This document shows positions 10,386 through 31,108 of a stretch of 64,000 nt of DNA, piece after piece. Position 1 is the stretch's first letter. Every line of letters begins with the position of its first letter. A program made the translations under genes and the position numbers. The notes under the pieces are model-generated. The model did not search any database and had not been told where the DNA came from. It saw nothing but the letters and a program-made list of their open reading frames with translations. The stretch covers positions 39,497 through 103,496 of the forward strand of contig JAITVV010000067.1 of assembly GCA_031285625.1 (NCBI GenBank), in the 5' to 3' direction. This DNA is from Prevotella sp. (GTDB lineage: Bacteria > Bacteroidota > Bacteroidia > Bacteroidales > Dysgonomonadaceae).

Positions 10386-11345
10386 ATGGAAAATATTATT
10401 ATTTTAGCAGATCATTTCCTTAACTATCTAAATGTACCAACCATGGAAAATATTGAAATTGCTGATGGTTTCAAAGGTGAGAAAGCAATCGTTACGCCCT
10501 ATAACACAAGAGAATACCAAGAAACAAATGAGATAACGAGACAGTTATTTGTAACACACATTGGCTATTATCCAGATGCAAAATATCATTTTCGCCAAAG
10601 GGTATCTGGCGCAAATGAAAATATTCTCATTTATTGTGAAAAAGGGAAAGGTTGGGTAGAATATAAGGATGAAAAATATATACTATCAGAGAATCAGGCT
10701 TTTATCATCCCAGCAAATGAAGCTCATGTGTATGGCGCAGATATACGTAATCCATGGAGTATATACTGGCTTCATTTTAAAGGCCAGAATACCTATATGT
10801 TCAATTCCATTATTGGCAAATTATTGTCCATACAAGAATCAGATAACAGCAGATACAGTGACCGGATGGTTTTATTTGAGGATATGTATCAAAATCTCGA
10901 AATGGGATATAATCCTGAAAATCTGGAATATATCAGCTTTTGCCTGATGCATTTTTTAGCATCGCTCAAATATCTGACACAATTCAGGGAAATTAAGAAT
11001 GTAAAAGTAGATGATGTGATACAGCAATGTATACACTACATGAAAGATAACCTGGAAAATAAAATAACACTAAAAGATATAGCAGATGCTGTAGGCTATT
11101 CAAGTTCTCATCTGACCACTTTATTTTCCCAAAGGACCTCTTTTTCGCCGATAGTGTATTATAATCAGTTGAAGATACAAAGGGCTTGCTCATTCTTGCA
11201 ATTCTCAGACCTAAAAATTAAAGAGATCGCGTTCCGGCTGGGATATTACGACCCGTTTCACTTTTCCAACGCATTTATTAAGGAGATGGGAATCACGCCG
11301 AAAGAGTATCGTAAAAGATATAGGGAAGAATTACTGGAAAAATAG
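10386..11345 (+). CDS. AraC family transcriptional regulator (ligand-binding cupin plus HTH); true start may be 10443
   Basis: THIGYYPDAKYHFRQR, PWSIYWLHF, C-terminal IKEIAFRLGYYDPFHFSNAFIKEMGITPKEYR; divergent from the sugar operon. Confidence 0.9.
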   Translation: MENIIILADHFLNYLNVPTMENIEIADGFKGEKAIVTPYNTREYQETNEITRQLFVTHIGYYPDAKYHFRQRVSGANENILIYCEKGKGWVEYKDEKYILSENQAFIIPANEAHVYGADIRNPWSIYWLHFKGQNTYMFNSIIGKLLSIQESDNSRYSDRMVLFEDMYQNLEMGYNPENLEYISFCLMHFLASLKYLTQFREIKNVKVDDVIQQCIHYMKDNLENKITLKDIADAVGYSSSHLTTLFSQRTSFSPIVYYNQLKIQRACSFLQFSDLKIKEIAFRLGYYDPFHFSNAFIKEMGITPKEYRKRYREELLEK

Positions 11346-11368
11346 ATTAGTCACTTTTACAAAAAACA

Positions 11369-11398
11369 AAAGCCATATAAGTTTCGTTATATGGCTTT
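11369..11398. terminator. Bidirectional intrinsic terminator between araC and the end of the PKS operon
   Basis: AAAGCCATATAA-gtttcg-TTATATGGCTTT perfect stem with A-rich and T-rich flanks between convergent genes. Confidence 0.8.
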
Positions 11399-11411
11399 CG
11401 TTTTTTAGTTT

Positions 11412-12287
11412 TTAATATCTGCCGATACCCTCTTCTTTAGGGTATTTATAGAATCCTTCTCCCGAAAGATAGCCGAGTTTGCCCTTTTTCAGGAAATTCT
11501 CTTTTATGTATTGCGCAAATAATCTATCTTTCAGTTCTCCATTAACAGCGATATTATATATTGTATTGAGTCCCACAATATCATACATTTCGAATGGTCC
11601 GACAGGTGATCCGGTGGCAATACGCCATGTTTTATCTATAGTTTCCACATCACTGACTCCTTTCAGATAAAGTTCAGACGCCGCGCCCATAAAAGGCATC
11701 AGCAGTGAATTCAGTATATATCCACGTTGTTCTTTTTTTACTATAATGGGTACCATACCTATTGCCTCGGCAAATTCTACCACAGTATCGAAAGATTCAA
11801 CATCCGTCTTGGTGGATTTCATTATCTCGGCAATATTACAATGGAACAGTAGATTGGAGAAATGTAATGATAAGAATTTATGCGGGCGTCCTGTATACTC
11901 CATCAGATGACTTGGCAGCATGGTAGACGAATTTGTCGTGAAAATTGTTTTTTCAGGAGCAACCCTGCCCAGCTCGGTATATAGTTGCTGCTTTGTTGCC
12001 GGATCTTCGGGTACTGCTTCGATAGTTAGGTCAGCATTCCTTACAGCTTCCGAAAGATTGAAGGAATAAGATATATTATTGAAAGCATTTTCTATATCCT
12101 CTTCAGCTGCATTTGCTTCCCTCAGATATATTGTTTTCAGTAAATCCAGATGCTCGATAACTTTACTGTACATATCTGCACTTATATCGTATATAATTAC
12201 GTTGAAACCTTTATAGGCTATCTGAAAAGCGATTTGGGAACCCATATTACCACCGCCTAATACGGTTACATTGGAGATTTTTTCCAT
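11412..12287 (-). CDS. 3-hydroxyacyl-CoA (3-hydroxybutyryl-CoA) dehydrogenase; last gene of the PKS operon
   Basis: VLGGGNMGSQIA Rossmann motif, IEAVPE, TNSST, LHF catalytic His, GYILNSL, GPFEMYDIVGL. Confidence 0.9.
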   Translation of the reverse strand: MEKISNVTVLGGGNMGSQIAFQIAYKGFNVIIYDISADMYSKVIEHLDLLKTIYLREANAAEEDIENAFNNISYSFNLSEAVRNADLTIEAVPEDPATKQQLYTELGRVAPEKTIFTTNSSTMLPSHLMEYTGRPHKFLSLHFSNLLFHCNIAEIMKSTKTDVESFDTVVEFAEAIGMVPIIVKKEQRGYILNSLLMPFMGAASELYLKGVSDVETIDKTWRIATGSPVGPFEMYDIVGLNTIYNIAVNGELKDRLFAQYIKENFLKKGKLGYLSGEGFYKYPKEEGIGRY

Positions 12288-12296
12288 GGTGTATGT

Positions 12297-13904
12297 TTAT
12301 TTATTTAGTTTGTATAAGTGATGTATTTCTATACTTTTTTCGTCTATTGTATTTATAATGGTATCGGAAAGTATCAGTGTATAATTTTCTTTAAAAGCGG
12401 GAAGACTCAGAAAATAATCCTGATTACCTATTTTACGCCTTTTCTGTACTTTGGTACTTCCGTCAAAATTGAGTAAGGATTGAGGAATAAGAACAAACTT
12501 AACTTCCTTATTCTCTATATATTTTGTCTGTTCATCACGCATTTCCGGATATGACTCATAAGTAAGATTAGGAGAAACAAAATAGCGCACATTGGGTACA
12601 ATACGGCATGTGGTAAATAAACTGTTTCCGAGTCCAAAACCGATATTGAGTAATGTAGGGTTCTCTTCTTTCATAATTTCATCATGCAATTTCTGAGTGA
12701 GTAAACCTGGCTCCAGTTCAACTGCAGTACTAGCAATTCTATTATTCCCCAAATCACTTTGACTATAACCCAGATATACAATTGCAGTAGTTAATATTAT
12801 GAGATAGACAGGCGAAACCTGACCTTCCACTTTCACACATTTGGATATATATACGAATAGACTGAGAAGCCCTAAGCCGCTAAAAACAAGAAAAACAACA
12901 GGGTAATACATCTGAAAAACCGGGAACATGAATATAATAATATATAAGGATACCCCAGATAGCAACAATGCCCATTTACCCAAAGTATGTCCAATATGTT
13001 TTAGAGGGAACCAGAAAACTCCAATCAACGTCATAAAAAACAATGAGAATGGATCGAGAAACAGATATACGACACGGAGAAGTATCAGTTGAATAGTACT
13101 TGTGATGGATTGCAATTCGGCATATTTGCGATTTAGTTCTATATAGACGGAATATCCTTCCTGAAGAGCATCATTTACATACAAGTATATAAGGATAGGT
13201 ACTGCAATAACTAAAATTCCGCCAATATATGTAAGCGCATTTATTGCAAAATTCTTAAATTCCTTCTTTAGCAATAGATTCAAAAATATTGCAGCTAAAG
13301 GGAAAAACCAGAAAACGATTAAATTCAGTTTTATAAAAAGTACCATGGAACAAAAAAGACCATGTATAAACATTACAGATGGTTTATGGTAAGACGCATC
13401 CTTTTCTTTAAAATACCTGACAAAGTAAAAGAGGCTGATGCACTCGAAAACAAGGATAAATTCCTCTGCCGAACCTCCCGCTTTCATCATCTTAATAATA
13501 AAGACAGGAAATATAACAGCGACTATATATGCAAATACCCTATCGAGATATAGTTTAGACAGCTTGTATATAAAGTAAACCATGACAAACCAGGCAGTCC
13601 ATTGAATAAGGAACATTCCAAAGAATGAATTATTCGATATAAGATAACCAAAACCGTATATAAAAAAGATAAGTGGTCCTTTGTGATCAAATACCTCTGT
13701 ATAAAGGGCTTTCCCATTAAAAATGCCCTTTGCTACATTAAAATAAATATTCACATCGGCCCACTCATTTGAATAGTATAATGGGGACATATGCGAACAT
13801 ATAACTAATAGAAAAAAAAGATAAAAACCCAAGAGAGCAAGTATCTTCTTTTCGCTCAGCGTATTAAAAAATTCTTTATTCAACATATAAGTTTTTCTGA
13901 TCAA
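12297..13904 (-). CDS. Polytopic membrane protein, probable GT-C fold (ArnT/PMT-like) glycosyltransferase
   Basis: About 11-12 hydrophobic segments; first loop 'DVNIYFNVAKGIFNGKALYTEVFDHKGPLIFFIY' carries the D..Y...LY.D..DHKGP signature; soluble C-terminal domain. Confidence 0.7.
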   Translation of the reverse strand: MIRKTYMLNKEFFNTLSEKKILALLGFYLFFLLVICSHMSPLYYSNEWADVNIYFNVAKGIFNGKALYTEVFDHKGPLIFFIYGFGYLISNNSFFGMFLIQWTAWFVMVYFIYKLSKLYLDRVFAYIVAVIFPVFIIKMMKAGGSAEEFILVFECISLFYFVRYFKEKDASYHKPSVMFIHGLFCSMVLFIKLNLIVFWFFPLAAIFLNLLLKKEFKNFAINALTYIGGILVIAVPILIYLYVNDALQEGYSVYIELNRKYAELQSITSTIQLILLRVVYLFLDPFSLFFMTLIGVFWFPLKHIGHTLGKWALLLSGVSLYIIIFMFPVFQMYYPVVFLVFSGLGLLSLFVYISKCVKVEGQVSPVYLIILTTAIVYLGYSQSDLGNNRIASTAVELEPGLLTQKLHDEIMKEENPTLLNIGFGLGNSLFTTCRIVPNVRYFVSPNLTYESYPEMRDEQTKYIENKEVKFVLIPQSLLNFDGSTKVQKRRKIGNQDYFLSLPAFKENYTLILSDTIINTIDEKSIEIHHLYKLNK

Positions 13905-13913
13905 ATTGTTTTC

Positions 13914-15098
13914 TTAAAGAGCAATCCCTTCCAGCAATTCGGCTGCTTTTCTATTACCTCCTGCTTCGATGAAAGATTGCTGTATTTCTCCGGCCGCCTT
14001 TTTATATGCGGGATTATATAATAATTCATCTACGGCATGCTCAATATCCTTCACGCGCATACGACTATATTTGATACGAATACCACATCCATAGTTTTGA
14101 ATTAATTGTGCTGTATGTGACTGGTCGAATGCCATTGGAATTATCAGCATGGGTATACCATTCATAAAGGTGTCACAAGTTGTATTTAATCCTCCATGTC
14201 CGATTACAACATCAATATGTTTTAATAGCTCGGATTGAGGTACATAACCTTGTACAATAAAGTTATCCGGCCATTCTTCCAAGATATTAGGGTCAGCGGC
14301 AGCAACGACTGTTACAGGTTTATCTTTCAAAGCCTCGATCATACGGCTGAAAAATTCTTTCCGACTGTGAACCAACACTGTACCTATTGATATATATATT
14401 TTAGGTCGATCACCCATTGATTTGAGCCTTTCCCAGTCAAAAGGCGTATTATCGGGCCTTCCTGTCAAAGCCCCTATGAATTTCATATATGGAGGAACAG
14501 AAGCATCATCGAAACCGCAAAACAATTGAGAAGTATAATACATATTCAATTGTTTAGACAATACAAATTCCTCATCCCCCTCAATACCAGCCAATCGTTG
14601 CAACTCTATAATAGATTTATGTACCCATTCTGTAACTTTAGGTGCACTTTGCGGATCATTTAGTGCATTAGGCGTAATTGGCGTTATGGTTGCAAAAGGA
14701 ATATTTTTTAACCGAGCCGCTAATCCTCCGACAAAAGTGATGCAGTCATTTACTATTACATCAGGTTTATACCTATCCACAATCTCATTAAACTCATCTA
14801 TCATCATTTTGGCAAAAGGAATATAAGTATCCTCCAAGCCTAACTTGAGAGCTTCCAGAGCCGGCATATTTGCACCTTTATTCTGTAATAAGATTATACG
14901 TTCTATCTCTTCCTTATTTTTACTTTCAGTCTCCTCCATATAAAAATACTTTGCCCCATCCGGAAATAATTCCATATTGAGCTGAGTCATACCTGCCCAG
15001 GCAACATCATGACCTCTTTCTAAAAGAGTGCGGCCTACGCTTAAGGTTGGATTTATATGCCCCCAGAATGGAGGAACTACAAATAAAAATTTTGCCAT
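13914..15098 (-). CDS. GT1 (MGT/UDP-glycosyltransferase) family glycosyltransferase
   Basis: PPFWGHINP catalytic His; VPQSELL...GHGGLNT...PMAFDQ donor-binding motif. Confidence 0.92.
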   Translation of the reverse strand: MAKFLFVVPPFWGHINPTLSVGRTLLERGHDVAWAGMTQLNMELFPDGAKYFYMEETESKNKEEIERIILLQNKGANMPALEALKLGLEDTYIPFAKMMIDEFNEIVDRYKPDVIVNDCITFVGGLAARLKNIPFATITPITPNALNDPQSAPKVTEWVHKSIIELQRLAGIEGDEEFVLSKQLNMYYTSQLFCGFDDASVPPYMKFIGALTGRPDNTPFDWERLKSMGDRPKIYISIGTVLVHSRKEFFSRMIEALKDKPVTVVAAADPNILEEWPDNFIVQGYVPQSELLKHIDVVIGHGGLNTTCDTFMNGIPMLIIPMAFDQSHTAQLIQNYGCGIRIKYSRMRVKDIEHAVDELLYNPAYKKAAGEIQQSFIEAGGNRKAAELLEGIAL

Positions 15099-15127
15099 CG
15101 GATTATCTTTTAAGGTTATAAACCTAC

Positions 15128-16315
15128 TTATTTTACTAGTATGTTTTCCAATAATTCTACAGCTTTGGCAACACCTCCAGCCTCCTCAAAAGATTTCTGT
15201 ACGGTTTTTGCGTTTTCTGTATATTTACTGTCATTAAGGACTTCGTTTACAGCATCCTGTAAATGTTGAGCCTTAAATCTGTTAAAGTTTAATCTTATGC
15301 CTGAACCACTACTAACAACTGTGCCTGCAACATATGACTGGTCGTAAGCAATAGGTAAAACGACCAATGGTTTAGCAAATGATAATGTTTCACAGACTGT
15401 ATTATGTCCTCCATGACATACAACTGCATCCATATGAGGGATAAGTTTAAGTTGAGGAATACGTTTACAAACGATAAAATTATCTGGTATGTACTCAAAT
15501 AATTCAGGATCGGAAACAATTACTACACCTATCTTTTCATTCTCAAAGGCCTCTGTCACTTTTTTAAGGAATTGTTGCTTTACACTATGGTCAAAGGTTG
15601 TACCTATAGTAACAAGTATTCTGGAGCGATCATTCATTGATTGAAATGTTTTCCAATCAAAATCATCTGGAAAGTCTCCCCTGTTAATTACCGGCCCTAT
15701 AAATTTATAATGATCCGGTAATTCAGCCTCTCCAAATAGTTTTTTAGATGTATATACAATCGTAAGCAATGAAGAACAGTCTAAACGCTTATCATCATCA
15801 ACACCTACACTCTTTTGAAATTTTATAATCTGCTCTCCTTCCCATACATGAACCATAGGTAAAGTATCATTTACCTTGATAGCCGCAGGGGCTGTAACCG
15901 ATGTCACATAAGGGATTCCTTTCTGTATTGCAGCTACCGGTGCTGCAAAGATCTGATGATCGTTAATAATAATATCCGGTTTGTACGAATCTATAAGTTT
16001 CTTTATACCATCCAGCATTCCGGCATTCATCGGGACCAGTACCTCGTCATACAAAAATTTTAAACTATCGAGACCGTAAACAGTTTTTTTACCAAGTTCC
16101 AGCATTTCTGTCTTTATCCTCTCCTTATCTTCCTCGCTTATATCAGCTTCCAATAAGAGAAAAGTGCCTCCATCAGGTATTCTTTTCTCTAATTGGGGAT
16201 CAAAACTAATCCATGCAACTTCATGCCCTTTATTAAGCAATTCGGTTCCGAGGCCTAAGGTAGGATTAACATGCCCTGTAAGAGGTGGAACTATAAATAA
16301 AAATCTGCTTTTCAT
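15128..16315 (-). CDS. GT1 (MGT/UDP-glycosyltransferase) family glycosyltransferase, paralog
   Basis: PPLTGHVNP; IPQLKLI...CHGGHNT...PIAYDQ. Confidence 0.92.
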   Translation of the reverse strand: MKSRFLFIVPPLTGHVNPTLGLGTELLNKGHEVAWISFDPQLEKRIPDGGTFLLLEADISEEDKERIKTEMLELGKKTVYGLDSLKFLYDEVLVPMNAGMLDGIKKLIDSYKPDIIINDHQIFAAPVAAIQKGIPYVTSVTAPAAIKVNDTLPMVHVWEGEQIIKFQKSVGVDDDKRLDCSSLLTIVYTSKKLFGEAELPDHYKFIGPVINRGDFPDDFDWKTFQSMNDRSRILVTIGTTFDHSVKQQFLKKVTEAFENEKIGVVIVSDPELFEYIPDNFIVCKRIPQLKLIPHMDAVVCHGGHNTVCETLSFAKPLVVLPIAYDQSYVAGTVVSSGSGIRLNFNRFKAQHLQDAVNEVLNDSKYTENAKTVQKSFEEAGGVAKAVELLENILVK

Positions 16316-17070
16316 CTCATAAATTCTAAAAGTTTGTCACTAACCCATTGTGGTTTCTGAACAGGTAGATTGTGATCACCTTGTCCTTTCAACAGATACG
16401 AATCCGGAATAATATTTTTCAGGAAATCTCCTGCAAACGAGCAATCTGACTCAGAGCCATATAATAACAGAGTAGGCACTTTGATAGGATTGTTGGACAT
16501 AATGTCAAACAAATCGTTGTCCATATCAAAATCCTCCTTTATGGAGGTATGATTGAACAAGTACTCATAAAGTTTCTTATTCTTTTCTATTTGTCTTTTA
16601 CTCGGCTGCAAAGATGTTGATTCGGCATAGTTATTCAGATATTGATCAAGAAATTCATTACCGTACTTTTGAAGTATCTCCGGAGCATCTCCTTCATCCG
16701 GCTTAGGAGACTCTATTACAGTAAGTTTCTCTATTCTTTTAGGATGAAGCATTGCAGTTTTCAGAGCAATGAGCCCACCATAACTATACCCTACTAAATG
16801 TACCTTCGTCAGATCCAGTTCATTCAGCAGAGCAACCAAGTCTTCTGACATAGCCTCAAGATTATAGCCATTATCAATTCGTTCACTCATGCCATGACTT
16901 TGCAGATCATACAAAACAACATGAAAATATTTGGCCAGTTCCGGAGCTATATTAAAGTAGAATACAGACATATTGGTAAACATACCATGAATCATCACAA
17001 TAGTCTGTGATGCTTCACGGTTCATTTCCAATACATGTATTTTCTTATTGTTTACCTGAATGATCGCCAT
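16312..17070 (-). CDS. Alpha/beta hydrolase (candidate thioesterase or acyltransferase)
   Basis: MIHG oxyanion motif, YDLQSHGMS, GYSYGG nucleophile elbow, C-terminal GDH; ATG at 17070 (ORF track starts at TTG 17073). Confidence 0.85.
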   Translation of the reverse strand: MAIIQVNNKKIHVLEMNREASQTIVMIHGMFTNMSVFYFNIAPELAKYFHVVLYDLQSHGMSERIDNGYNLEAMSEDLVALLNELDLTKVHLVGYSYGGLIALKTAMLHPKRIEKLTVIESPKPDEGDAPEILQKYGNEFLDQYLNNYAESTSLQPSKRQIEKNKKLYEYLFNHTSIKEDFDMDNDLFDIMSNNPIKVPTLLLYGSESDCSFAGDFLKNIIPDSYLLKGQGDHNLPVQKPQWVSDKLLEFMR

Positions 17071-17353
17071 CAACTATAAAGTTTACGATATCACCAATAT
17101 TTAATTTTACAATTTGGTCGAGATCCATGGCAGACAGCCATTTTGCGAAATCTATACCATCTCCATACTTTACTCTTACCTTTTCAGCAAAAGCGACCAG
17201 CTCAATACTGTCCATTTCCAGATCTTTTGTAAAGTTGCTGTCTTGTGTTATATCAAGCTCTTCAGCTATATCTGCACCAATTATATCTGAAATAAATTGT
17301 TTTAATACTTCAAATACCTGGTCTTTTTCGCCCTTTACCATTACTGTGTCCAT
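17045..17353 (-). CDS. Discrete acyl carrier protein
   Basis: Acidic ~100 aa protein with DLEMDSIELV phosphopantetheine site; overlaps both neighbours. Confidence 0.9.
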   Translation of the reverse strand: MDTVMVKGEKDQVFEVLKQFISDIIGADIAEELDITQDSNFTKDLEMDSIELVAFAEKVRVKYGDGIDFAKWLSAMDLDQIVKLNIGDIVNFIVDGDHSGKQ

Positions 17354-21735: not shown

Positions 21736-21742
21736 TTTCGAA

Positions 21743-24700: not shown

Positions 24701-27700
24701 ATCAATATCTATGATAGTTGCATTACGTTTATCAAAGAGTTTATCGATATCAACAAACTTTCCGGTTGACAGATACTTAGCAATGCTATGTAAGATGAAA
24801 CTTACTCCATTAAAACTCTTATTCTCTGTTTCAAAAGCAGATACTTTATCTCCTAAAATAGATTGCACAAGCCCTGTGAGGACTCTACCCGGTCCTACTT
24901 CCAGAAATACACGGGCACCATCATTATACATATTTTCAACCTGCTTCGTAAACAATACAGGTTTGATAAGATGTTCCGATAATCTATCTTTTATTTCCTG
25001 ACCTTTAGCCGGATAATACTCTGCAGTCGTATTTGACCAAACTGGAAGACTCAATTTCTTAAAGTCAACTGTTTTCAATACATCAGCATACAAATCTTTT
25101 GATTTATGTAAAAGAGGGCTATGGAAAGCACATGCTACATTCAATTCCTTATATGCAATATTTTTCTTGCTTAGCTTTTGCATAAAAGCATTCACACCCT
25201 CAGTAGATCCTGCAAGAACAATTTGCTTATGTGAATTAAAATTCACTGCCCATACTTCTGTTTCCCCTTCCAGTAAAGCATTTACTTCTGCTTCAGGAAG
25301 ACTCACAGCAATCATTTTACCCTTGTCTTCCTCAACTGCATCCAGTATAGACAAAGCTCTCTTACGACTCAACGAGACTAATTCTTCAGCATCAAAAGCT
25401 CCTGCAAAACACAATGCCGGCAATTCTCCATAGCTATGACCAGCGACCATATCCGGCACAATGCCTAATGATTTGAGGAATTCTGCAAAAGCAAAATCTA
25501 CTATACCAAGCAATGGCTGTGCATTTCGGGTATCAGTAATAACCTTCTGCTGCTCTTTACGCGTTTGTTCATCAAAAGTAGCGTAAGGGAATAATATCTT
25601 TTCGTATTCTTTATGCTTAGCCAGCAAACGGCGCATAGCAGGAAATGCAACAAACATATCGCGCGCCATATTCACTCTCTGACTACCCTGTCCGGAGAAC
25701 ATAAAGGCTACTTTACCATCTTTCGCATTTTTCGGATAAATACCATATTCTTCTTTTCCTGCAAGCGCTGTATCAATTTTTTTCAATAATTCACTACTAT
25801 CACTTGCTACTATAGAAAGTTGGATTTCCTTTTTGCTGTATACAGCCAAGCTATAGGCAATATCCTTAATACTGATCTTGTCGTTGTAGCCCAACACATC
25901 TTTTACTTTCTGCAACTGCTGCTTGGCTTCACTTAATGAATCTCCACGGAATACAAAAAGTTCTGATGGCCATAATGGTAAACTGCAACTAGGAACTTCA
26001 GAATTTTTATGGTTCTCCATCACTACGTGGAAATTGGTTCCACCGAATCCGAAAGCACTAACCCCTGCGATTCTTCTCTCGCTATCCCAGTATCCGGAAT
26101 GTGTATTGAATACAAACGGGCTGCTATCCTTATCATAATAAGGGTTCGGTTTATTCAAGTGCAATGTTGGCGGCTGAACTCTATAGTAGATAGATAGAGC
26201 TGTTTTGATAACCCCGGCAATACCGGCAGCACATTTTGCATGTCCTATCTGTGTTTTTACAGAACCTAACAACGACTGGCCTTTGATGGCTCCCGATTCA
26301 AGGAACATATCTGTCAAGGCACGAAGTTCTGTTCTGTCACCGACTACTGTTCCAGTACCGTGAGCTTCTATCATCTCTACCTGTGATGGCAAGATTCCCG
26401 CACTCTGATACGCTCTTTGTAACGCTTTGATCTGACCGTTTCTATTTGGAGCTGTCAACCCAAGACTTTTACCATCACTACTTCCACCAACGCCTTTTAT
26501 AACAGCATATATCTTATTTCCATCACGTTCAGCATCAGCTAATCTCTTCATAACAAGGACTCCTATCCCCTCACCTAATGCTATACCATCCGAGTCTGCA
26601 TCAAACGAAGCTGAATACCCTTTGCGAGATAATGCATGGGTACATGAAAACATCAGGAAGTCATTGATTCCATTATGCAAATCAGTACCTCCGAGAAGTA
26701 CCATATCTGAACGGTTAGAAGATAGCTCTTGGCAACCAAGATCTAGAGCCGCTAGAGAAGATGCACATGCTGCATCTACAGTATAGTTGCGTCCACCCAG
26801 ATTCAGGCGGTTAGCTATTCTACCGGATATTACATTAGATAATACTCCGGCAAATGAATCTTCATTAAGTCGGGGAAGAGAATTTTTTAACTCATCAGGT
26901 AATTCACCCAAAGCCTGTTTGGCATAACCTCTGAAACCATAGCTGGCTGCTAGTTCGGTTGAACCTTCGGCACCGAATATTACGGATGTATTTTCTAAAT
27001 CTACTTCACCAAGATTACCATATCCTGCATCTGTAAGTGCTTGCTTAGCTACCAAAAGACTCAATAACTGAGTTGGCTCTATAGATGCCAGGGATTGTGG
27101 AGTCATACCGAACTCCAGAGGATCAAAATCTATTGTAGGAATAAATCCTCCCCATTTAGACACAACCTTATCAGTATCAGTTGTATTAGGATCATAATAC
27201 AAATCTTTATTCCAACGGCTGTCCGGAACTTCACTTATACAATCTTTACCAAGAACGATATTTCTCCAATATTCCTCAATATTATGCGCATCAGGGAAAA
27301 TACCTGAAATACCCACAATTGCCACATCTAATGGTTCAGCTTGTGAAACAGGTAAAGAAATATCGGGAAGCTGTGTTAAAAGCTCATTGTTATCTATAGC
27401 TACATGTTTATGTAATTCATCCAGGGTCAACACCTTCTGATTGAGCGCAGCAACCTGCCCTATCATGTAAAGACCTTTTTCTTTTTGCTCCTCTTCACCT
27501 AACTTTACAAGATCGGTACCGATACGCTCAATACCTTTTGTAGCAATTCTGGAACGACCAAGATTTAGTTCTTCCAACCTCACCCAGACTTCTTTACTAT
27601 CAAGATTTTGCTCCTGCAACTTTTCCTTTTCTTTCTCAAAATGTTCTGTGAATGGAGATTTTAAAGATTGAGTTTCTTGTCCGGGAGCTGCTTGAAGGAT

Positions 27701-29272
27701 GACTGTACTGTTTTCTTCTATTGCCAATTTCTGGAATCCGGAAAGAATAGCTCTCGAGTCTACAGCTTCTTTGGTATAGAGGTATGAAGAACCCATCAGC
27801 ACTCCCACTTTAGCACCTTTAGCATCCAGTGTGGCAGACATAATAGAAATGAATGCAGAAGAGAAAGCGTCGTGAATTCCACCAGCAAAGAACACACTGA
27901 AGGAAGATAAATTATCTTCTTTCAGTAATCTGTATATCTGCCTTTCCCACAAAACAAAACTGGAAAGAGGACCTATATGTCCTCCACTTTCACGTCCTTC
28001 AAATATAAAGTTTTTCGCATTTTCTTTTAGGAACATATCCAATAATGCCTGTGAAGGCACATGGATAAACGCCTTGATTCCTGCCTTTTCGAAAGGTTTG
28101 GCCAATGAAGGACGACCTCCCGCTATAAGTACTACCGATGGCTTGTACTCCAATATATATTTTGTTTGCTCTTCCCGTTGTTTTGTCGGGATAAAACCAA
28201 GTAACCCCACGCCCCATGTTTTACCTTCAAGTAATCTACTGGATTCTGCTACCAGATTGCGGGCAGCATCACCAGTTGTCATACTCATTGCGATAAATGG
28301 CAGAGCTCCGGCATCTGCAACATTACAAGCAAATTCGGGCACATCACTCACTCTGGCCATTGGCCCTTGAGCTATCGGATACTTAGTGCCCAGATCTTTA
28401 GCTAGCTTGCTGTCAGATTTGATTGTTTGTAATTTTTTAGCTTGTTGTATGTGTCCATATACAGCTTCATGAAAACCTGTAACTAATGCTGACAGGTTTT
28501 TATATTTTTCCACCAGGTCAATAGATATTGCGATATCCTGCCCCATTGGTATGAAATTATTTTTAATTTCGAGACCGCCTAACAAAGGAAGAATATCAGA
28601 GTATTTAGCATTAGCAGGCAATTTAGGAGAGTCATTTCTCTGTAAAACTCTGAAATTATCGATAACAGTAGTTTCACTTCCGCTTAATTTACTAAAAAGA
28701 TTCTTTAGCTCTTTAGCCAAACCACATTCAGGGAATAAGGATATCTGACTATCCATAATAATGCCTTTAGCTCCCAATGCTAGGCATGCAGCTGAAGTAT
28801 GAATTCCTGTCCCTCCCTGCACATATACATTGATGTCTTTGCCAGAACACTTACTGATTATGCTTTGGAAAAGAACAAAAGAAGACTGATCTGCAACCCT
28901 TCCGGCACCTTCATTCCCCTTTACTACAACATTATTCAACCCCTGCCCAATAGCGGACTCAGCTTCATCTAATGAATGTACCTGACAGAACTTCTTAATT
29001 TTTTTCCCGGATGGTACGTCCATCCCAAAAGGAAAAATTACAACATCAACATTTAAGGGTAATTTCAGTTTTGTTGAAGTTTCGTTCACATAACATACCC
29101 CAAAAGGTTTTGTCGTAGATTTTGCTAGAATGTCTAAAGCTTCCTGAGCCTCAGATTCATTCCGTCCAAGATGCAATACAGGATATGCACCCGATTCGAT
29201 TGTTTTTAAAGCTAGTGTCGCGTTTGGTATCTCGAATGGAGATAGAATAAGTAGCTCTTTGTAATGTTGCAT
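21743..29272 (-). CDS. Iterative type I PKS/FAS, PfaA-like: tandem FabK/NMO-like ER barrels-KS-AT-ACPx3-KR
   Basis: YPIAQGPM and EGRESGGHIG (FabK/PfaD-like); KS DAACASS / EAHGTGT / KTQIGH; AT FSGQGSQ, GHSYGE, CAFHS; three DLSIDSIKRME ACPs; KR GGAQGI, HAAGLLDD, GQSDYASAN. Confidence 0.92.
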   Translation of the reverse strand: MQHYKELLILSPFEIPNATLALKTIESGAYPVLHLGRNESEAQEALDILAKSTTKPFGVCYVNETSTKLKLPLNVDVVIFPFGMDVPSGKKIKKFCQVHSLDEAESAIGQGLNNVVVKGNEGAGRVADQSSFVLFQSIISKCSGKDINVYVQGGTGIHTSAACLALGAKGIIMDSQISLFPECGLAKELKNLFSKLSGSETTVIDNFRVLQRNDSPKLPANAKYSDILPLLGGLEIKNNFIPMGQDIAISIDLVEKYKNLSALVTGFHEAVYGHIQQAKKLQTIKSDSKLAKDLGTKYPIAQGPMARVSDVPEFACNVADAGALPFIAMSMTTGDAARNLVAESSRLLEGKTWGVGLLGFIPTKQREEQTKYILEYKPSVVLIAGGRPSLAKPFEKAGIKAFIHVPSQALLDMFLKENAKNFIFEGRESGGHIGPLSSFVLWERQIYRLLKEDNLSSFSVFFAGGIHDAFSSAFISIMSATLDAKGAKVGVLMGSSYLYTKEAVDSRAILSGFQKLAIEENSTVILQAAPGQETQSLKSPFTEHFEKEKEKLQEQNLDSKEVWVRLEELNLGRSRIATKGIERIGTDLVKLGEEEQKEKGLYMIGQVAALNQKVLTLDELHKHVAIDNNELLTQLPDISLPVSQAEPLDVAIVGISGIFPDAHNIEEYWRNIVLGKDCISEVPDSRWNKDLYYDPNTTDTDKVVSKWGGFIPTIDFDPLEFGMTPQSLASIEPTQLLSLLVAKQALTDAGYGNLGEVDLENTSVIFGAEGSTELAASYGFRGYAKQALGELPDELKNSLPRLNEDSFAGVLSNVISGRIANRLNLGGRNYTVDAACASSLAALDLGCQELSSNRSDMVLLGGTDLHNGINDFLMFSCTHALSRKGYSASFDADSDGIALGEGIGVLVMKRLADAERDGNKIYAVIKGVGGSSDGKSLGLTAPNRNGQIKALQRAYQSAGILPSQVEMIEAHGTGTVVGDRTELRALTDMFLESGAIKGQSLLGSVKTQIGHAKCAAGIAGVIKTALSIYYRVQPPTLHLNKPNPYYDKDSSPFVFNTHSGYWDSERRIAGVSAFGFGGTNFHVVMENHKNSEVPSCSLPLWPSELFVFRGDSLSEAKQQLQKVKDVLGYNDKISIKDIAYSLAVYSKKEIQLSIVASDSSELLKKIDTALAGKEEYGIYPKNAKDGKVAFMFSGQGSQRVNMARDMFVAFPAMRRLLAKHKEYEKILFPYATFDEQTRKEQQKVITDTRNAQPLLGIVDFAFAEFLKSLGIVPDMVAGHSYGELPALCFAGAFDAEELVSLSRKRALSILDAVEEDKGKMIAVSLPEAEVNALLEGETEVWAVNFNSHKQIVLAGSTEGVNAFMQKLSKKNIAYKELNVACAFHSPLLHKSKDLYADVLKTVDFKKLSLPVWSNTTAEYYPAKGQEIKDRLSEHLIKPVLFTKQVENMYNDGARVFLEVGPGRVLTGLVQSILGDKVSAFETENKSFNGVSFILHSIAKYLSTGKFVDIDKLFDKRNATIIDIDKPEQYKKSPIIWHVNGHNAVPANGKMPSTGAYPITQPIMNLKEMYNNPNNNSVSGSSSSDQVVLEYLNSMRMMLQSQRDVMLGYLGHTPANNISAPIQTIPVQQVLPVAPAPQVQQSQPQPVVMPVAALQPVASATSAVSIEDIKALLLETVSEKTGYPIDMLGLELDLEADLSIDSIKRMEVIGALREKLNISGSMEDAEDTIEKLASVKTLNGLIEWIEDLAKSSMSQAQPQMQSAGSVMQVNMPVAVQPVAAPIASTPAPAAVSMEDIKTLLLETVSEKTGYPIEMLGLELDLEADLSIDSIKRMEVIGALREKLNISGSMEDAEDTIEKLASVKTLNGLIEWIEDLAKAGQEQASAPVQQQGTTPVMQSAQSMPVATQPVVATAPAAVSMEDIKALLLETVSEKTGYPTDMLGLDLDLEADLSIDSIKRMEIIGSLRDKLNISGSIEDAEDTIEKLASVKTLNGLIDWIEELANGSKSEETPAQLPSQSQPQQAAVTTSKTIADDLIRMSFELEEKILNSEKILIDGKHFALTDDGGEYAESVKAVMELNGATVDLIKGDEDLTQYDGLVILNSSASPRKYSIKEVFNMIKNVDLAKIKWVYTFSDILGNIKATEGISKMKEIQGFPGLIKSLAHEFPAINFRAVVSHSVFDKASLAQIVVDELLTRDATYIEIIYKDEKRYFTNPKPVELTPNGGSHLALDKDSVVVVFGGAQGITPELVSELSKEYPCNYILVGRSEAPTPEFDKYKSLDSKDKIRKYLISEENMRSPGEIEKKVQKIFKANQINENVAKIEKTGGKVTYVSLDIKNEQALRDFIKKTYETYGRIDGIFHAAGLLDDKLFIHKTFDSFEQVYSTKVTPLHVLLDELHPDLKLFVMFSSVASSYGNKGQSDYASANSVFDHIASALNEKMDARILTINWGPWKGTGMVSDTLEAEFKKRGVSLIPLKEGAEYFVNELKYGKENHVLVMGGAEDVKGFLNI
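23270..24285 (-). repeat. Three near-identical ACP-encoding repeats (~250 bp each) with Pro/Ala/Gln-rich linkers inside the large PKS
   Basis: EDIK.LLLETVSEKTGYP..MLGL.LDLEADLSIDSIKRME.IG.LR.KLNISGS.EDAEDTIEKLASVKTLNGLI.WIE occurs three times; DSI codons near 24167, 23786 and 23408; boundaries approximate. Confidence 0.9.
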
Positions 29273-29304
29273 TTTTAATACTGTATAATATTATTGTTGT
29301 TTAT

Positions 29305-29393
29305 GTTGTCTTATCCTCGGATAATAAAATCCAGGACCTATTTGTTGTCTTAGTGTTATCTATTTTTATCTATTACGTGTGTTCGTTGTCTTA
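29305..29393 (-). promoter_or_regulatory. Three evenly spaced 9-bp direct repeats (TAAGACAAC on the coding strand) upstream of the large PKS
   Basis: GTTGTCTTA at 29305, 29344 and 29385 (spacing 39 and 41 bp); function inferred. Confidence 0.5.
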
Positions 29394-29427
29394 TGTCTAT
29401 TGATTTCCTTATATCAAAAATTGTCAA

Positions 29428-30795
29428 TTATGTTAGTGTTACTGCATATGTATTTTTGTTAAATTTGCGTATTTGCCATATATATAATACAACGGCTAAT
29501 ACCGTTGACAAGAAATCAGATAAAGGTATTGAGGCCCAGACTCCATCCAGTTCGAAAAAATACGACAGGATAAATAGAGATGGAACTAAAATAAGAAATT
29601 GCCGTGTCAAGCTTAGAAATACTGATTTGACAGGCATTCCAATAGATTGAAAAAAGTTTGATATCACCATTTGAATCCCGCTTAAAGGGAGCATAATAGT
29701 CAAAATCTTTAATGCCCGCGCAGCCTCTCTTGCTAATGCCTCAGAAGGGTTAAAAGGGCGAACTATTATATTCGAGAAAAATATTCCGCAAACCAAACCC
29801 ACAATCCCGATGCCAATTCCTGCCTTGATGGCCTGATTTACTGTAGAAGCAACCCTGTCGAACCTCTTGGCTCCAAAATTGTATCCCACTATCGGTTGCA
29901 TACCTTGTGTCAATCCTACTATTATAAGTATTATAACCAATGTCAACCTGCTTGCAATAGTATAAGCTTCTATAGCAATACTATCTCCATATATTCTAAG
30001 ACGATTATTAATAAAAAAAACTACAACTGAGGCGGCAAGTTGCATAATAAATGGAGAAAATCCAATGCTTACAATAGCCCAAATAATCTTTTTATCAGGA
30101 CTTATTTTATTCTTATAAAATCTCAATGTACTATTTTGATCCAGAAAATGATACATTATTGGGATCAGGGTAACAAGTGTGGATATCGATGTAGCAACTG
30201 CAGCTCCTTTCATTCCCCATTTGAGAACAAAGATAAATACCGGTGCTAATAGAATATTCGTAATAACGCCCAGAAGCATTGTATACATTGCTTTTTTAGG
30301 ATATCCTGAGGCACGCATAATACTACTTAATGTGTAACTCAAGTTCAAGAAAAGGTTACATGGCAAATAATAGAGGAGAAACTCATGGGCAAAGTGATAA
30401 GTTTCATTGGTTGCTCCGATAGCTAACAATATGGATTCCAGAAAGAGATAAACAAAAAGGATTGACACCCCTGTTAATAAAACGACTAAAAAGAAAGCGT
30501 TTCCTAAAACCCTCTCGGCCTCATCCTTTAGCCCCATCCCCATATAGATGGAAATACGGCTGGCAGCACCTGTACCAACAAACAACCCCAAGGCTGTAAA
30601 AAGCGTCATAACAGGAAGAACAATTCCAAGCCCACCAATGGCATGATCGCCCAAACCGGGGCCATGCCCTATATATATACTATCTATTGTATTATAAATA
30701 GCAACAACCAGGGAGCCTACAATCGCCGGAATAGAATATTCCCAGAGGAGTTTTGTAGTTTGTTCAGTTTCTAATCTATTTAGTCTAGATTCCAT
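29428..30795 (-). CDS. MATE family efflux transporter; first gene of the PKS operon
   Basis: 12-TM pattern; SIPAIVG..YNTIDSIYIG, MRASGYPK, GMKGAAVAT, QPIVGYNFGAK, FFQSIG. Confidence 0.92.
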   Translation of the reverse strand: MESRLNRLETEQTTKLLWEYSIPAIVGSLVVAIYNTIDSIYIGHGPGLGDHAIGGLGIVLPVMTLFTALGLFVGTGAASRISIYMGMGLKDEAERVLGNAFFLVVLLTGVSILFVYLFLESILLAIGATNETYHFAHEFLLYYLPCNLFLNLSYTLSSIMRASGYPKKAMYTMLLGVITNILLAPVFIFVLKWGMKGAAVATSISTLVTLIPIMYHFLDQNSTLRFYKNKISPDKKIIWAIVSIGFSPFIMQLAASVVVFFINNRLRIYGDSIAIEAYTIASRLTLVIILIIVGLTQGMQPIVGYNFGAKRFDRVASTVNQAIKAGIGIGIVGLVCGIFFSNIIVRPFNPSEALAREAARALKILTIMLPLSGIQMVISNFFQSIGMPVKSVFLSLTRQFLILVPSLFILSYFFELDGVWASIPLSDFLSTVLAVVLYIWQIRKFNKNTYAVTLT

Positions 30796-30951
30796 AAATT
30801 AATCTAGCTACAAATAAAGAAATCCGCCATCAATCTATAAAAATATTTATAGTTGATCAAGCAAGACTTCGGCATACTGTAACTTTTGTAAAATAAGGCA
30901 CTTACATCAAAAATAAGCAAAGCTTGTCATCAATATCTTGTTTCCTAGGTG

Positions 30952-30959
30952 CAAATGTA
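30952..30959 (-). promoter_or_regulatory. Sigma-A -7 element (TACATTTG), candidate promoter of the MATE-PKS operon
   Basis: TAnnTTTG match about 157 nt upstream of the MATE ATG. Confidence 0.55.
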
Positions 30960-31062
30960 AACAAAATATATCTTATATAAAAAAATATATATTCAAATTC
31001 TTGGCTATTGAAGCGATTTACTAATAGCCAGCACATTATTTTTCACAAAGCTTGAACAAACT

Positions 31063-31078
31063 ATTGACTAATCAATAA
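31063..31078. promoter_or_regulatory. Putative MarR operator 1 (ATTGA-CTAA-TCAAT palindrome)
   Basis: ATTGACTAATCAATAA just upstream of the marR -7 box TACTTTTG (31086-31093); identical copy at 31554. Confidence 0.75.
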
Positions 31079-31108
31079 TTATTTATACTTTTGTAAAAAT
31101 AATTATAT

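Follow-up and report, generated by a model that had tools for sequence, protein, structure and literature searches.

Synthases resembling the PUFA synthase Pfa (pfaABCDE) provide the closest described relatives of the cluster analysed here. In the comparison given in PMC3098273, the heterocyst glycolipid (hgl) synthase of Nostoc/Anabaena is placed as Type F, without FabA-type dehydratase/isomerase domains, with hglC being KS-CLF-AT. [quoted passage not shown]

The locus lies in a 64,000-nt stretch of a Dysgonomonas genome (the window), where ORF calling gives nine co-oriented minus-strand genes at 11412-30795. With a probability put at roughly 0.55, they encode a self-priming, iterative PUFA-synthase-like type I FAS/PKS that together with glycosylation would yield a glycosylated long-chain saturated or hydroxylated acyl lipid. 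The ORF coordinates show a gap of 155 bp between the MATE gene and PKS1, 7 bp between PKS1 and PKS2, overlaps of 13 bp between PKS2 and the free ACP, 29 bp between ACP and hydrolase (taking the TTG start of the latter) and 4 bp between hydrolase and first GT1, a 29-bp gap between the two GT1 genes, and 9 bp on either side of the GT-C gene, the last separating it from the HCDH gene. A Bacteroidetes-type -7 promoter motif, TAnnTTTG (TACATTTG, 30952-30959, minus strand), precedes the MATE start codon by about 157 nt and is a plausible promoter; the window contains 92 copies where 74 are expected, and the motif by itself says little. An intrinsic terminator (11369-11398, minus strand) with a 12-bp stem, a 6-nt loop and a T-run directly follows the HCDH stop codon. 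Tight spacing, a single promoter motif and a single terminator fit a predicted nine-gene operon, with the 155-bp gap counting against a single unit. The sequence-only reading had placed nine co-oriented genes between this box and this terminator, closely packed from the large PKS onward with overlaps at PKS2/ACP and hydrolase/GT1; the ORFs, motif and hairpin are all found and the packing is reproduced. A divergently transcribed MarR-family regulator gene (31109-31534, plus strand; PF01047 46.1 bits) adjoins, for which no counterpart is present in the flanks of related loci, and its membership of the cluster is uncertain.

PKS1 (2509 aa, 21743-29272, minus strand, as are all features that follow) is PfaA-like, scoring 1077.4 bits against TIGR02813 (NCBIfam cut-off 1010.1), and is arranged as a fusion of PfaD-like and PfaA-like parts in the order ER-like TIM barrel, ER, KS, AT, three ACPs and KR, with the motifs DAACASS, GQGSQ, GHSYGE and YASAN all present. 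The N-terminal residues 1-290 (28403-29272), termed ER*, form a second NMO/FabK-like segment with an NMO match below cut-off (18.5 bits, E 1.4e-3) and E about 5e-3 against the FabK structures 7l00 and 9pl0, faintly suggesting a degenerate ER-like TIM barrel. Residues 291-620 (27413-28402) are a FabK/PfaD-type FMN enoyl reductase (PF03060 65.6 bits; TIGR03151 FabK 97.6 bits; E 3e-15 against 7l00). The ketosynthase KS1 (residues 649-1039, 26156-27328) has its active-site Cys in DAACASS and is followed by the acyltransferase AT1 (residues 1190-1470, 24863-25705), whose motifs (GQGSQ, GHSYGE, Arg and CAFHS) are of the malonyl type, the three tandem ACP domains (23268-24326) with LSIDSIKR phosphopantetheine sites at residues 1700, 1827 and 1953, and the ketoreductase (residues 2234-2452, 21917-22573; PF08659 113.2 bits; YASAN motif).

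PKS2 (1464 aa, 17341-21735) begins with a ketosynthase, KS2 (residues 5-412, 20500-21723), in which Cys-His-His is intact (DAACASS, HGTAT, GHAMPAAG) as in KS1, ruling it out as a chain-length factor. In the acyltransferase-fold domain AT2 (residues 599-799, 19339-19941), GHSLGE and the His are kept; alignment of both AT domains with the host's own FabD shows that the GQGxQ loop and conserved Arg found in AT1 are missing. Since AT2 lacks these malonyl-recognition elements, the KS-AT portion of PKS2 is, on its motifs, not an ordinary extender-loading pair. The dehydratase (residues 970-1295, 17851-18828) is found neither by Pfam nor by PDB sequence search. It is a double-hotdog PKS-type domain by its AlphaFold model (pLDDT 85.3), for which the top Foldseek matches are all PKS DH domains (MlnB DH at E 5e-13, CurJ, MAS-like PKS), and by the invariant H1001 (HSLxxQP) and D1158 (LLDNxGQ). 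The C terminus is an Sfp/ACPS-type PPTase (residues 1371-1446, 17398-17625; PF01648 47.1 bits) with NGKP and ISLAH, conforming to the x(G/D)xP and hShxH motifs. The earlier assignment of PKS2 as KS-AT-DH-PPTase thus stands for its domains, with the AT atypical; across the cluster all of the domain calls are reproduced, the DH and GT-C by fold only and ER* below cut-off.

Downstream of PKS2 the free-standing ACP (102 aa, 17045-17353; PF00550 22.6 bits, cut-off 20.8) has D48-S49 invariant in 17 orthologues. The alpha/beta hydrolase (253 aa, 16312-17073; PF00561 88.2 bits), with S97 (GYSYG) and H234 invariant in 19 orthologues and a PF00975 Thioesterase match of 23.4 bits, below cut-off, is a candidate chain-release enzyme. 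The first GT1-family glycosyltransferase (15128-16315) is UDPGT/macrolide-GT-like (PF00201 53.7 bits; PF06722 56.1 bits) and the second (13914-15098) matches PF00201 at 75.7 bits. The next protein (12297-13904) falls just below the PMT_2 cut-off (25.5 against 26.1 bits) and its homologues carry the source names GT39/ArnT family. The GT-C-like call made for it earlier is confirmed by fold, as 22 of 22 Foldseek matches of its AlphaFold model (pLDDT 83.7) at E <= 1e-3, including AglB, ALG9/12, ArnT, STT3 and DPY19, are GT-C enzymes or complexes containing one, and it is a GT39/ArnT-like membrane glycosyltransferase. The last gene (11412-12287) encodes an NAD-dependent 3-hydroxyacyl-CoA dehydrogenase family protein (HCDH; NF006143 379.8 bits, cut-off 312), and the first (29428-30795) a 455-aa MATE-family transporter (PF01554 160.5 bits; TIGR00797 184.9 bits, passing the cut-off of 147.4).

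The cluster resembles Pfa in the KS-MAT-tandem ACP-KR order of PKS1, the PfaD/FabK-type ER and the dedicated PPTase, its catalytic functions being packed into just two proteins. It differs in having the ER fused to the PfaA-like N-terminus and the PPTase joined to PKS2, and in the attached GT1, GT-C and MATE genes. Domain and profile searches and motif inspection of the nine cluster proteins reveal no FabA-type dehydratase/isomerase and no chain-length factor, and hence no KS-CLF pair, the DH being of the PKS type; the domain and profile searches likewise reveal no thioester-reductase domain in the nine. By analogy, the Hgl pathway is the closest functional counterpart, likewise a pfa-like synthase without a FabA-type dehydratase/isomerase, whose lipid receives sugars and is exported into a layer of the envelope. 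Where hglC is described as KS-CLF-AT (PMC3098273), the cluster has the intact KS2 followed by DH-PPTase, and it adds a GT-C protein to its two GT1s and has a MATE protein as exporter. With no terminal reductase an acid, rather than the alcohol of Hgl, would be expected. As ArsA/ArsD are presented in PMC4824345 and PMC3098273, they share with the cluster the M-T secondary-lipid branch and PPTase motif class and pass very-long saturated chains to tailoring enzymes, these being type III PKSs there and glycosyltransferases here. The cluster's family is probably the Type N of PMC3098273, judged by description of the C. gleum and C. pinensis loci, with which it shares its occurrence in Bacteroidota, tandem ACPs encoded by a pfaA-like gene, a PPTase of the x(G/D)xP and hShxH motif class alongside, and an uncharacterised product.

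Relatives of PKS2 occur in 539 species genomes, and the six-gene core (PKS1, PKS2, ACP, hydrolase, GT1, GT1) is preserved in collinear order in 78 of 80 inspected loci, drawn from Dysgonomonas, Tannerellaceae, Apibacter, Chryseobacterium (more than 50 genomes), Flavobacterium, Sphingobacterium, Pedobacter, Mucilaginibacter and Taibaiella; the remaining pair (L032 and L056) run into contig edges. The synteny that the sequence-only reading proposed to look for is present, and the architecture, which that reading presented in a Bacteroidales genome, is not confined to this one, given this spread and the published antiSMASH regions. One locus, L038 (NZ_JAOAMU010000002.1, 512554-536774), falls within C. 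herbae region 2.2 (495,527-554,653), with 47-55% identity to the window over the core and, belonging to clade B, different accessory genes. The cluster is thus a local variant of a family widespread in Bacteroidota and already catalogued as an orphan. A MATE gene lies upstream of PKS1 in nine of the ten clade-A loci (L007-L016; the exception, L012, is cut by the contig end) and in none of the 70 loci L017-L086, and MATE and GT-C accompany the core in every clade-A locus reaching far enough. Soil Bacteroidota loci have instead two or three PapA/condensation-like acyltransferases (PF00668, PF16911 matches) and no transporter gene in the block; the window's cluster has no PapA-like gene. Its peculiarity is the accessory set of MATE, GT39/ArnT-like GT-C and cluster-specific HCDH in place of the PapA-like proteins, which accompany Chryseobacterium-type loci lacking all three. 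Mycobacterial PGL/PDIM and acyl-trehalose pathways likewise combine PKS, PapA acyltransferases and GT1 glycosyltransferases, and the soil-clade relatives resemble them in logic only, as the synthase sequence families differ.

Counting the window's own genome each time, the cluster is present in 4 of 35 genomes of the genus and in 2 of 401 sampled genomes of the order and 3 of 401 of the phylum; being rare and patchy, it cannot belong to the core make-up of the envelope. The window's flanks have nothing in common with those of its closest relatives, indicating that what is conserved as a unit is the block of nine genes. HCDH appears cluster-specific, with close orthologues (78-79%) only in the three of three other cluster-bearing genomes of the genus and no full-length copy, only one relic, in the 31 cluster-less ones. 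Its position inside the cluster varies by lineage among three places.

From the domains, folds, motifs, gene order and distribution we infer the chemical steps, chain length, sugars and destination of the product. The PPTase of PKS2 would activate the three tandem ACPs and the free ACP, AT1 would load malonyl units, and KS1 and KS2, both with intact catalytic residues, would elongate the chain, with KR, PKS-type DH and FabK-type ER reducing in every round; lacking a FabA-type dehydratase/isomerase, the system should introduce no cis double bonds. AT2 and the free ACP may handle a non-malonyl acyl group in priming or hand-over, and the hydrolase would free the chain. On the cytoplasmic side the two GT1s are predicted to use nucleotide sugars to glycosylate either a hydroxyl that has been retained or the carboxyl group. 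In the Dysgonomonas/Apibacter variant the MATE protein (MOP superfamily) could then export the glycolipid through the inner membrane, on whose outer face the GT-C protein could attach one more sugar, taken from a polyprenyl-phosphate donor; the dedicated HCDH could convert a hydroxy group of the chain to a keto group or the reverse. The cell envelope is the favoured destination. This logic of a full reductive cycle, carrier activation, release, two cytoplasmic glycosylations, export and an extracytoplasmic GT-C had been proposed before and withstands the profile, fold and synteny tests; of the "(hydroxy)alkyl glycoside" then predicted the glycoside part is retained, and "(hydroxy)acyl glycoside" fits better as no alcohol-giving reductase is encoded.

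An unlikely though serious alternative is a secreted amphiphile, such as a sophorolipid-like hydroxy-fatty-acid glycoside acting as biosurfactant or antimicrobial, pumped out by the MATE protein instead of serving as a structural lipid of the envelope. The MATE family is mainly familiar for the efflux of small molecules, and its member at the head of this predicted operon, with the adjoining divergent MarR gene, agrees equally well with a secreted compound and with an envelope lipid. Specialised metabolites typically show such a patchy, accessory distribution, and sophorolipid synthesis uses two GT1 enzymes in series on a lipophilic aglycone, an arrangement that the GT1 pair may parallel. However, the MarR gene is not kept beside related clusters, GT-C enzymes work on the outer side of the inner membrane with acceptors held in it, which fits a membrane-anchored product better, and in the transporter-less soil-clade block the PapA/condensation-like acyltransferases would raise the hydrophobicity of the product. 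It is improbable that the synthase supplies other lipids with a fatty acid of ordinary or very long chain length, in the manner of ArsA, with the GTs, MATE, GT-C and HCDH as mere neighbours serving, for example, xenobiotic detoxification by glycosylation or LPS modification. The GT1s do resemble macrolide-inactivating glycosyltransferases, matching NF033129 and TIGR01426 (192.3 bits for the first, below the curated subfamily cut-off of 260), and these sub-threshold matches count against the glycolipid reading; GT39/ArnT-like paralogues of about 45% identity are common outside the cluster in Dysgonomonas and Prevotella, and accessory genes vary between clades. Yet the GT1 pair follows the hydrolase throughout the collinear loci of several Bacteroidota families and is fused in one clade, in loci of Chryseobacterium (one 800-aa protein in L019), Flavobacterium and Sphingobacterium. 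The conserved core order and the fusion in Chryseobacterium argue that glycosylation belongs to the synthase pathway. The GT-C and MATE genes also track the core in clade A, the HCDH orthologue occurs in the genus only with the cluster, and overlapping or near-abutting reading frames favour one unit.

A true PUFA or heterocyst-glycolipid-type synthase, with a polyunsaturated fatty acid or the glycoside of a long-chain alcohol as its product, is very improbable, even with PKS1 above the PfaA subfamily cut-off, tandem ACPs bearing the LSIDSIKR-type site, a FabK/PfaD-type ER and relatives typed hglE-KS by antiSMASH (PMC10459008, PMC11446778). A PUFA synthase was rejected for want of a chain-length factor, KS2 retaining its Cys, and of a FabA-type dehydratase, the sole DH having a modelled PKS double-hotdog fold; an Hgl-type alcohol pathway was rejected for want of a terminal reductase. 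Neither of these two characterised relatives, the PUFAs and the Hgl alcohols, therefore predicts the product. Moreover, the Hgl exporter is of the Dev type (DevBCA), and here the exporter is a MATE protein. At the DNA level the tandem ACPs of PKS1 are 300-nt repeats spaced 378 and 381 nt, at which public assemblies break.

The cluster in the window is an accessory-gene variant, with MATE and GT-C genes and with or without a 3-hydroxyacyl-CoA dehydrogenase (HCDH) gene, of a widespread, flagged and uncharacterized family; the variant occurs in Dysgonomonas, related Bacteroidales and Apibacter and is itself new. Full-length PKS2 homologues are found across Bacteroidota, and a scan of one genome per species gave 539 stretches encoding a PKS2 relative. 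The best 80 of these 539 span Dysgonomonas (D. mossii DSM 22836, 81%), Tannerellaceae and Bacteroidales MAGs and Apibacter, together with many Chryseobacterium, Flavobacterium, Sphingobacterium, Pedobacter, Mucilaginibacter and Taibaiella genomes with PKS2 relatives at 46-48%. In tblastn comparisons with the nine window proteins the six core genes (PKS1, PKS2, free acyl carrier protein (ACP), alpha/beta hydrolase and two GT1 genes) are collinear and co-oriented in 78 of these best 80 loci, and the other two (L032 and L056) end at contig edges.

The family is now defined by this core of six genes together with either of two accessory sets. Within the same best 80 of 539, the MATE gene is present in nine of the ten clade A loci (L007-L016, of which L012 is truncated at a contig edge) and in 0/70 of L017-L086, and the GT-C gene in 10/10 and 0/70, respectively. 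An ORF-family comparison of 18 chosen loci shows that two to three paralogous proteins of ~425 amino acids and a small membrane protein follow the GT1 genes in all ten loci of the Chryseobacterium-to-Taibaiella group (Chryseobacterium, Flavobacterium, Sphingobacterium, Pedobacter, Mucilaginibacter and Taibaiella) and in 0/8 loci of Dysgonomonas/Apibacter type. Three representatives of the 425-amino acid family match the Condensation, PapA_C and alcohol-acetyltransferase families, and the small membrane protein has a weak SecD/SecF_C match. Because these PapA/condensation-like genes follow the synthase/GT1 core (L019:17719-20797, L079:17822-20878 and L082:17804-22158), the product of this sister clade is predicted to be an acylated glycolipid. 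In Chryseobacterium, Flavobacterium and Sphingobacterium loci the two GT1 enzymes are fused into one 800-amino acid protein (e.g. L019:15313-17715), which is good evidence that both GT1s act together.

A maximum-likelihood PKS2 tree of 31 rows (quick search, unrooted, with a midpoint root for drawing only) separates the same two accessory groups with SH-aLRT values of 100 each. Apibacter branches with the Bacteroidales sequences rather than with its fellow Weeksellaceae member Chryseobacterium, and Flavobacterium rows fall within the Chryseobacterium and Sphingobacterium groups. This topology suggests lateral transfer, the direction of which is not inferable from an unrooted tree. The PKS2 of Flavobacterium seoulense lies within Chryseobacterium on very short branches (L068 and L053), and that of Flavobacterium araucananum groups with Sphingobacterium (L022 with L048, L058 and L078); these odd placements point to recent inter-family transfer or mislabeled records.

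In the window the cluster occupies 11412-30795 with all ORFs on the minus strand, as expected for the nine co-oriented genes between a promoter motif and a terminator described from the sequence. The gene junctions are tight, with 7 bp between PKS1 and PKS2, a 13-bp overlap of PKS2 and ACP, a 29-bp overlap of ACP and hydrolase (TTG start), a 4-bp overlap of hydrolase and GT1, 29 bp between the GT1 genes, and 9 bp both from GT1 to GT-C and from GT-C to HCDH; the sole longer gap within the block is that of 155 bp between MATE and PKS1. A TACATTTG motif on the minus strand (30952-30959), ~157 nt 5' of the MATE start, is rated a plausible promoter only, because this motif is frequent in the AT-rich window (92 matches observed vs 74 expected). 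A terminator-type hairpin with a 12-bp stem followed by a T-run (11369-11398) lies directly 3' of the last stop codon. The flanks hold MarR, DUF2269 and creatininase genes on one side and, on the other, an AraC-family regulator (10386-11345, plus strand) that converges on the cluster terminator, with an MFS sugar transporter beyond it (8926-10302, minus strand). None of these flanking genes recurs next to the cluster in the closest relatives, and the unit common to the relatives is the nine-gene block. An OmpR-type response regulator, absent from the window, adjoins the cluster downstream in D. mossii (L008:20862-21575) and lies upstream of MATE in three Apibacter/Flavobacteriaceae loci (L013:523-1227, L014 and L015); it is a possible cluster regulator.

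PKS1 (21743-29272, 2509 amino acids) comprises in Pfam and NCBIfam searches a FabK/NMO-type enoyl reductase (residues 291-620), a KS (649-1039), an AT (1190-1470), three ACPs and a KR (2234-2452). A further enoyl reductase, proposed for the first 290 residues, is possible, with a weak NMO/FabK signal (E 1.4e-3) and matches to FabK structures at E 5e-3. The three ACPs bear LSIDSIKR sites, and a direct-repeat search finds their coding DNA as 300-nt repeats spaced 378 and 381 nt, a region in which Tandem Repeats Finder reports no array. Three ACP copies are present in the window, L009 and L010 and two in the 16 other orthologues examined, and all four public assemblies aligned to the cluster break within the tandem ACP repeats (window 23330-24100). 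Alignment of AT1, the AT of PKS1, with the genome's own FabD shows the GQGSQ loop, GHSxG, the Arg and xAFH all present.

In PKS2 (17341-21735, 1464 amino acids), Pfam and NCBIfam assign residues 5-412 to a KS, 599-799 to an AT-fold domain and 1371-1446, at the C-terminus, to an ACPS-type PPTase, which has the motifs NGKP and ISLAH. Aligned with the host FabD and with AT1, the PKS2 AT (AT2) retains GHSLGE and the His; the GQGxQ loop is deleted and a 5-residue gap lies beside the Arg column, at which no conserved Arg occurs among 11 homologues. AT2 thus lacks in this alignment both the loop and the malonyl-carboxylate-binding Arg of malonyl-CoA:ACP transacylases, and it may be an acyltransferase for a non-malonyl acyl group, acting in priming or hand-over. 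The dehydratase (DH) called in PKS2 could be resolved by fold search only. Residues ~850-1300 are strongly conserved among homologues despite the lack of any match of the DH region in Pfam (including PF14765) or PDB sequence searches. An AlphaFold model of residues 970-1295, aligned with 23 orthologous stretches (pLDDT 85.3), has PKS DH domains as all of its top Foldseek matches, led by the MlnB DH (E 5e-13, TM 0.61/0.73), with further structural matches to CurJ/F/K, MAS-like PKS and PpsC. His-1001 (HSLxxQP) and Asp-1158 (LLDNxGQ) are invariant in alignments of 11 and 24 sequences and fit the expected DH His/Asp dyad, and the modeled domain is a PKS-type double hotdog. With this fold and dyad the reductive set KR-DH-ER is complete.

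The remaining proteins are smaller. The free ACP (102 amino acids) has Asp-48 and Ser-49 invariant among orthologues, and the alpha/beta hydrolase, with a sub-threshold thioesterase match, has invariant Ser-97 (GYSYG) and His-234. The two GT1/UDPGT-type proteins carry the UDPGT C-terminal donor-binding signature of a GT-B protein (PF00201, 53.7 and 75.7 bits vs a cut-off of 19.5) and lie below the cut-off of the TIGR01426 MGT subfamily (192 and 197 vs 260 bits). The MATE transporter is identified by Pfam/NCBIfam. The GT-C protein (529-535 amino acids, membrane) scores 25.5 bits with PMT_2, slightly below the cut-off of 26.1, and its homologues at ~45% identity carry GT39/ArnT-family source names. 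The multi-span GT-C fold suspected from the sequence is borne out by an AlphaFold model from 20 homologues (pLDDT 83.7), for which all 22 structural matches at E <= 1e-3 are GT-C enzymes or GT-C-containing complexes, including AglB, ALG9, ALG12, STT3, DPY19 and ArnT (TMq 0.55-0.57). GT39/ArnT-like GT-C enzymes place catalytic acidic residues on their first extracytoplasmic loop and use a sugar donor linked to polyprenyl phosphate; in the window protein, Asp-44 and Asp-67 are invariant among the 20 homologues.

PKS1 resembles PfaA of the Pfa PUFA synthases (KS-MAT-tandem ACPs-KR) in having three PP-binding domains and in passing the NCBIfam PfaA model TIGR02813 (1077.4 bits vs a cut-off of 1010.1), a score far higher than those with the Pks13 and Pks2 models. 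The cluster also shares with Pfa a PfaD/FabK-type enoyl reductase (NMO/FabK domain) and a dedicated PPTase (ACPS domain). However, Pfa synthases possess in PfaC a KS-CLF pair whose second member, though KS-like, has no active-site Cys, whereas both KS domains of the cluster have DAACASS and both His motifs. There is no chain-length factor (CLF), because both retain this intact Cys-His-His triad, and no third KS-like domain is found in the cluster with Pfam or NCBIfam. Pfa synthases further have a FabA-type dehydratase/isomerase, which has no match in any of the nine proteins with the same two databases, and the only DH of the cluster is the double-hotdog domain. Identity as a PUFA synthase is rejected because of the missing CLF and FabA-type DH. 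In the heterocyst glycolipid (Hgl) pathway a terminal thioester reductase yields a fatty alcohol aglycone. No such reductase (NAD_binding_4-type) occurs among the Pfam matches of the nine proteins, HCDH being of a different family, and where Hgl has an HglC-type KS-CLF-AT the cluster has PKS2 with an active KS followed by AT, DH and PPTase. The cluster therefore fails membership of both Pfa and Hgl on their defining features, namely the CLF, the FabA-type DH and the terminal reductase. It is like Hgl in having a pathway glycosyltransferase and a pfa-like synthase without DH/isomerase domains, as also described for Hgl Type F in PMC3098273, and by analogy the pathway may work like that for heterocyst glycolipids, combining a synthase without isomerizing dehydratases with glycosylation and export.

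The observation behind the sequence-only reading, with its domain calls and complete reductive set, is confirmed and the interpretation is supported in part; its claim of novelty has to be scaled back, as the family had already been flagged in other Bacteroidota. Shulse and Allen define twenty pfa-like "secondary lipid" cluster types, among them Type N of Chitinophaga pinensis and Chryseobacterium gleum with an uncharacterized product, and section 8 of their survey assigns the PPTase motif classes x(G/D)xP (P1a) and hShxH (P1b') to Types M-T (PMC3098273). The cluster agrees with Type N in the Bacteroidetes host, the pfaA homologue and the adjacent PPTase with NGKP and ISLAH (PMC3098273). The Type N genomes C. 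gleum ATCC 35910 and C. pinensis DSM 2588 are not within the best 80 of 539; many other Chryseobacterium genomes there carry the collinear core. Genome-mining papers carry the family merely as "hglE-KS/T1PKS, no known cluster" (PMC11446778, on Sphingobacterium, and PMC10459008); in the latter, an antiSMASH 7 region of Chryseobacterium herbae typed "hglE-KS, T1PKS, terpene" (495,527-554,653), with no similar known cluster, encloses locus L038. The cluster type is not mentioned in a Bacteroidetes genome-mining paper (PMC9248904) or a Flavobacteriaceae paper (PMC7440613), and no product is named in the literature searched, which comprised open-licence PMC papers and bioRxiv, so that subscription journals could be missed. 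From the Type N description, the antiSMASH listings and the lack of a product in these searches, the family is therefore already catalogued, but orphan.

The reading of the cluster as the source of a PKS-made lipid glycosylated by the linked glycosyltransferases is somewhat better than an even bet (approximately 0.55). The synthases would build an acyl chain iteratively that is fully reducible, hence mainly saturated and long, possibly with a retained hydroxyl; the hydrolase would free the chain and the two GT1 enzymes would then glycosylate it. The view that the GT1 genes are chance neighbors of the synthases is rejected, as both the synteny and the GT1-GT1 fusion speak against it. MATE proteins share the MOP superfamily with lipid-linked-sugar flippases, and in the variant of the window the MATE protein would carry the product across the inner membrane, the GT-C enzyme would extend it at the outer face of this membrane and the dehydrogenase would adjust a hydroxy or keto group. 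Within the glycosylated-lipid reading, the GT-C enzyme and the PapA-like acyltransferases of the sister clade favor an envelope-bound over a secreted product. Should the product be an ordinary secreted glycolipid, the result is a useful annotation and nothing beyond; should it be an envelope glycolipid, it would be a new lipid class for a phylum whose surface lipids matter in host interaction.

An undescribed class of bacterial glycolipid, in which a megasynthase-made very-long acyl chain replaces polyprenol as anchor and the glycan is assembled at both inner-membrane faces, with two GT1s inside, a MOP-superfamily MATE flippase and a GT-C enzyme outside, and with a PapA-acylated soil version, is an unlikely outcome; the soil Bacteroidota glycolipid would then parallel the mycobacterial outer-membrane lipids in a Gram-negative phylum. 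The main value of the results is that the product of the family is now readily testable in strains that can be cultured, among them D. mossii DSM 22836, Apibacter mensalis and numerous strains of Chryseobacterium and Pedobacter. With a PKS2 relative encoded in 539 of the species genomes scanned, the family ranks among the orphan megasynthase clusters with the broadest distribution in Bacteroidota.

Queried with the family-specific DH-PPTase half of PKS2, the cluster is present in 4/35 genomes of the genus Dysgonomonas, to which the window belongs, 2/401 sampled across the order and 3/401 sampled across the phylum, each count including the genome of the window. A different large synthase locus occurs in the same genus (L004, G006:C89:11923-31841) with ORFs of 2174 and 2312 amino acids, KS domains 36-41% identical to PKS2 and no DH-PPTase relative. 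HCDH (NF006143, 380 bits vs a cut-off of 312) is taken as an optional cluster member from its pattern of occurrence, being found among the clade A loci in L007, L008, L011 and L016, where its place varies among three sites (following GT-C, preceding MATE and in the GT1/GT-C interval). A search of the 35 genomes of the genus gives a match in 34, with close orthologues (78-79%) beside the cluster in exactly the three other cluster-bearing genomes (G019, G022 and G041) and, apart from G007, only a distant paralogue at 23-27% in the cluster-less genomes. The cluster-less G007 has HCDH-type fragments of 88 and 39 amino acids at 78% identity (L087:9873-10218; G007:C23, about 13873-14218), with no other cluster gene within 10 kb, which may be a scar of cluster loss.

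The cluster is covered at 95-99% identity in two RNA-labeled libraries of one study, X3 and X8. In X3 the depth is flat and contigs extend several kb past both cluster ends and across the divergent promoter region; this signal may stem from DNA carry-over, and a contig spanning several genes does not show a single transcript. X8 gives short contigs scattered across the cluster, one of which bridges the MATE-PKS1 gap (28947-29995). Coverage in X3 is missing over 11389-11433, next to the terminator, and one X8 contig begins at 11379; given that the two runs share a single study, these breaks are at most a hint. Four public runs, labeled insect gut metagenome (one), whole-organism metagenome (two) and with a coded organism name (one), contain DNA matching the whole cluster (window 11250-31200) at 95-99% identity. 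The variant of the window is found in Dysgonomonas and Apibacter, with near-identical DNA in insect-associated metagenomes, and cluster DNA also occurs in a termite-gut run, possibly the source of the window DNA, and in an ant-metagenome run.
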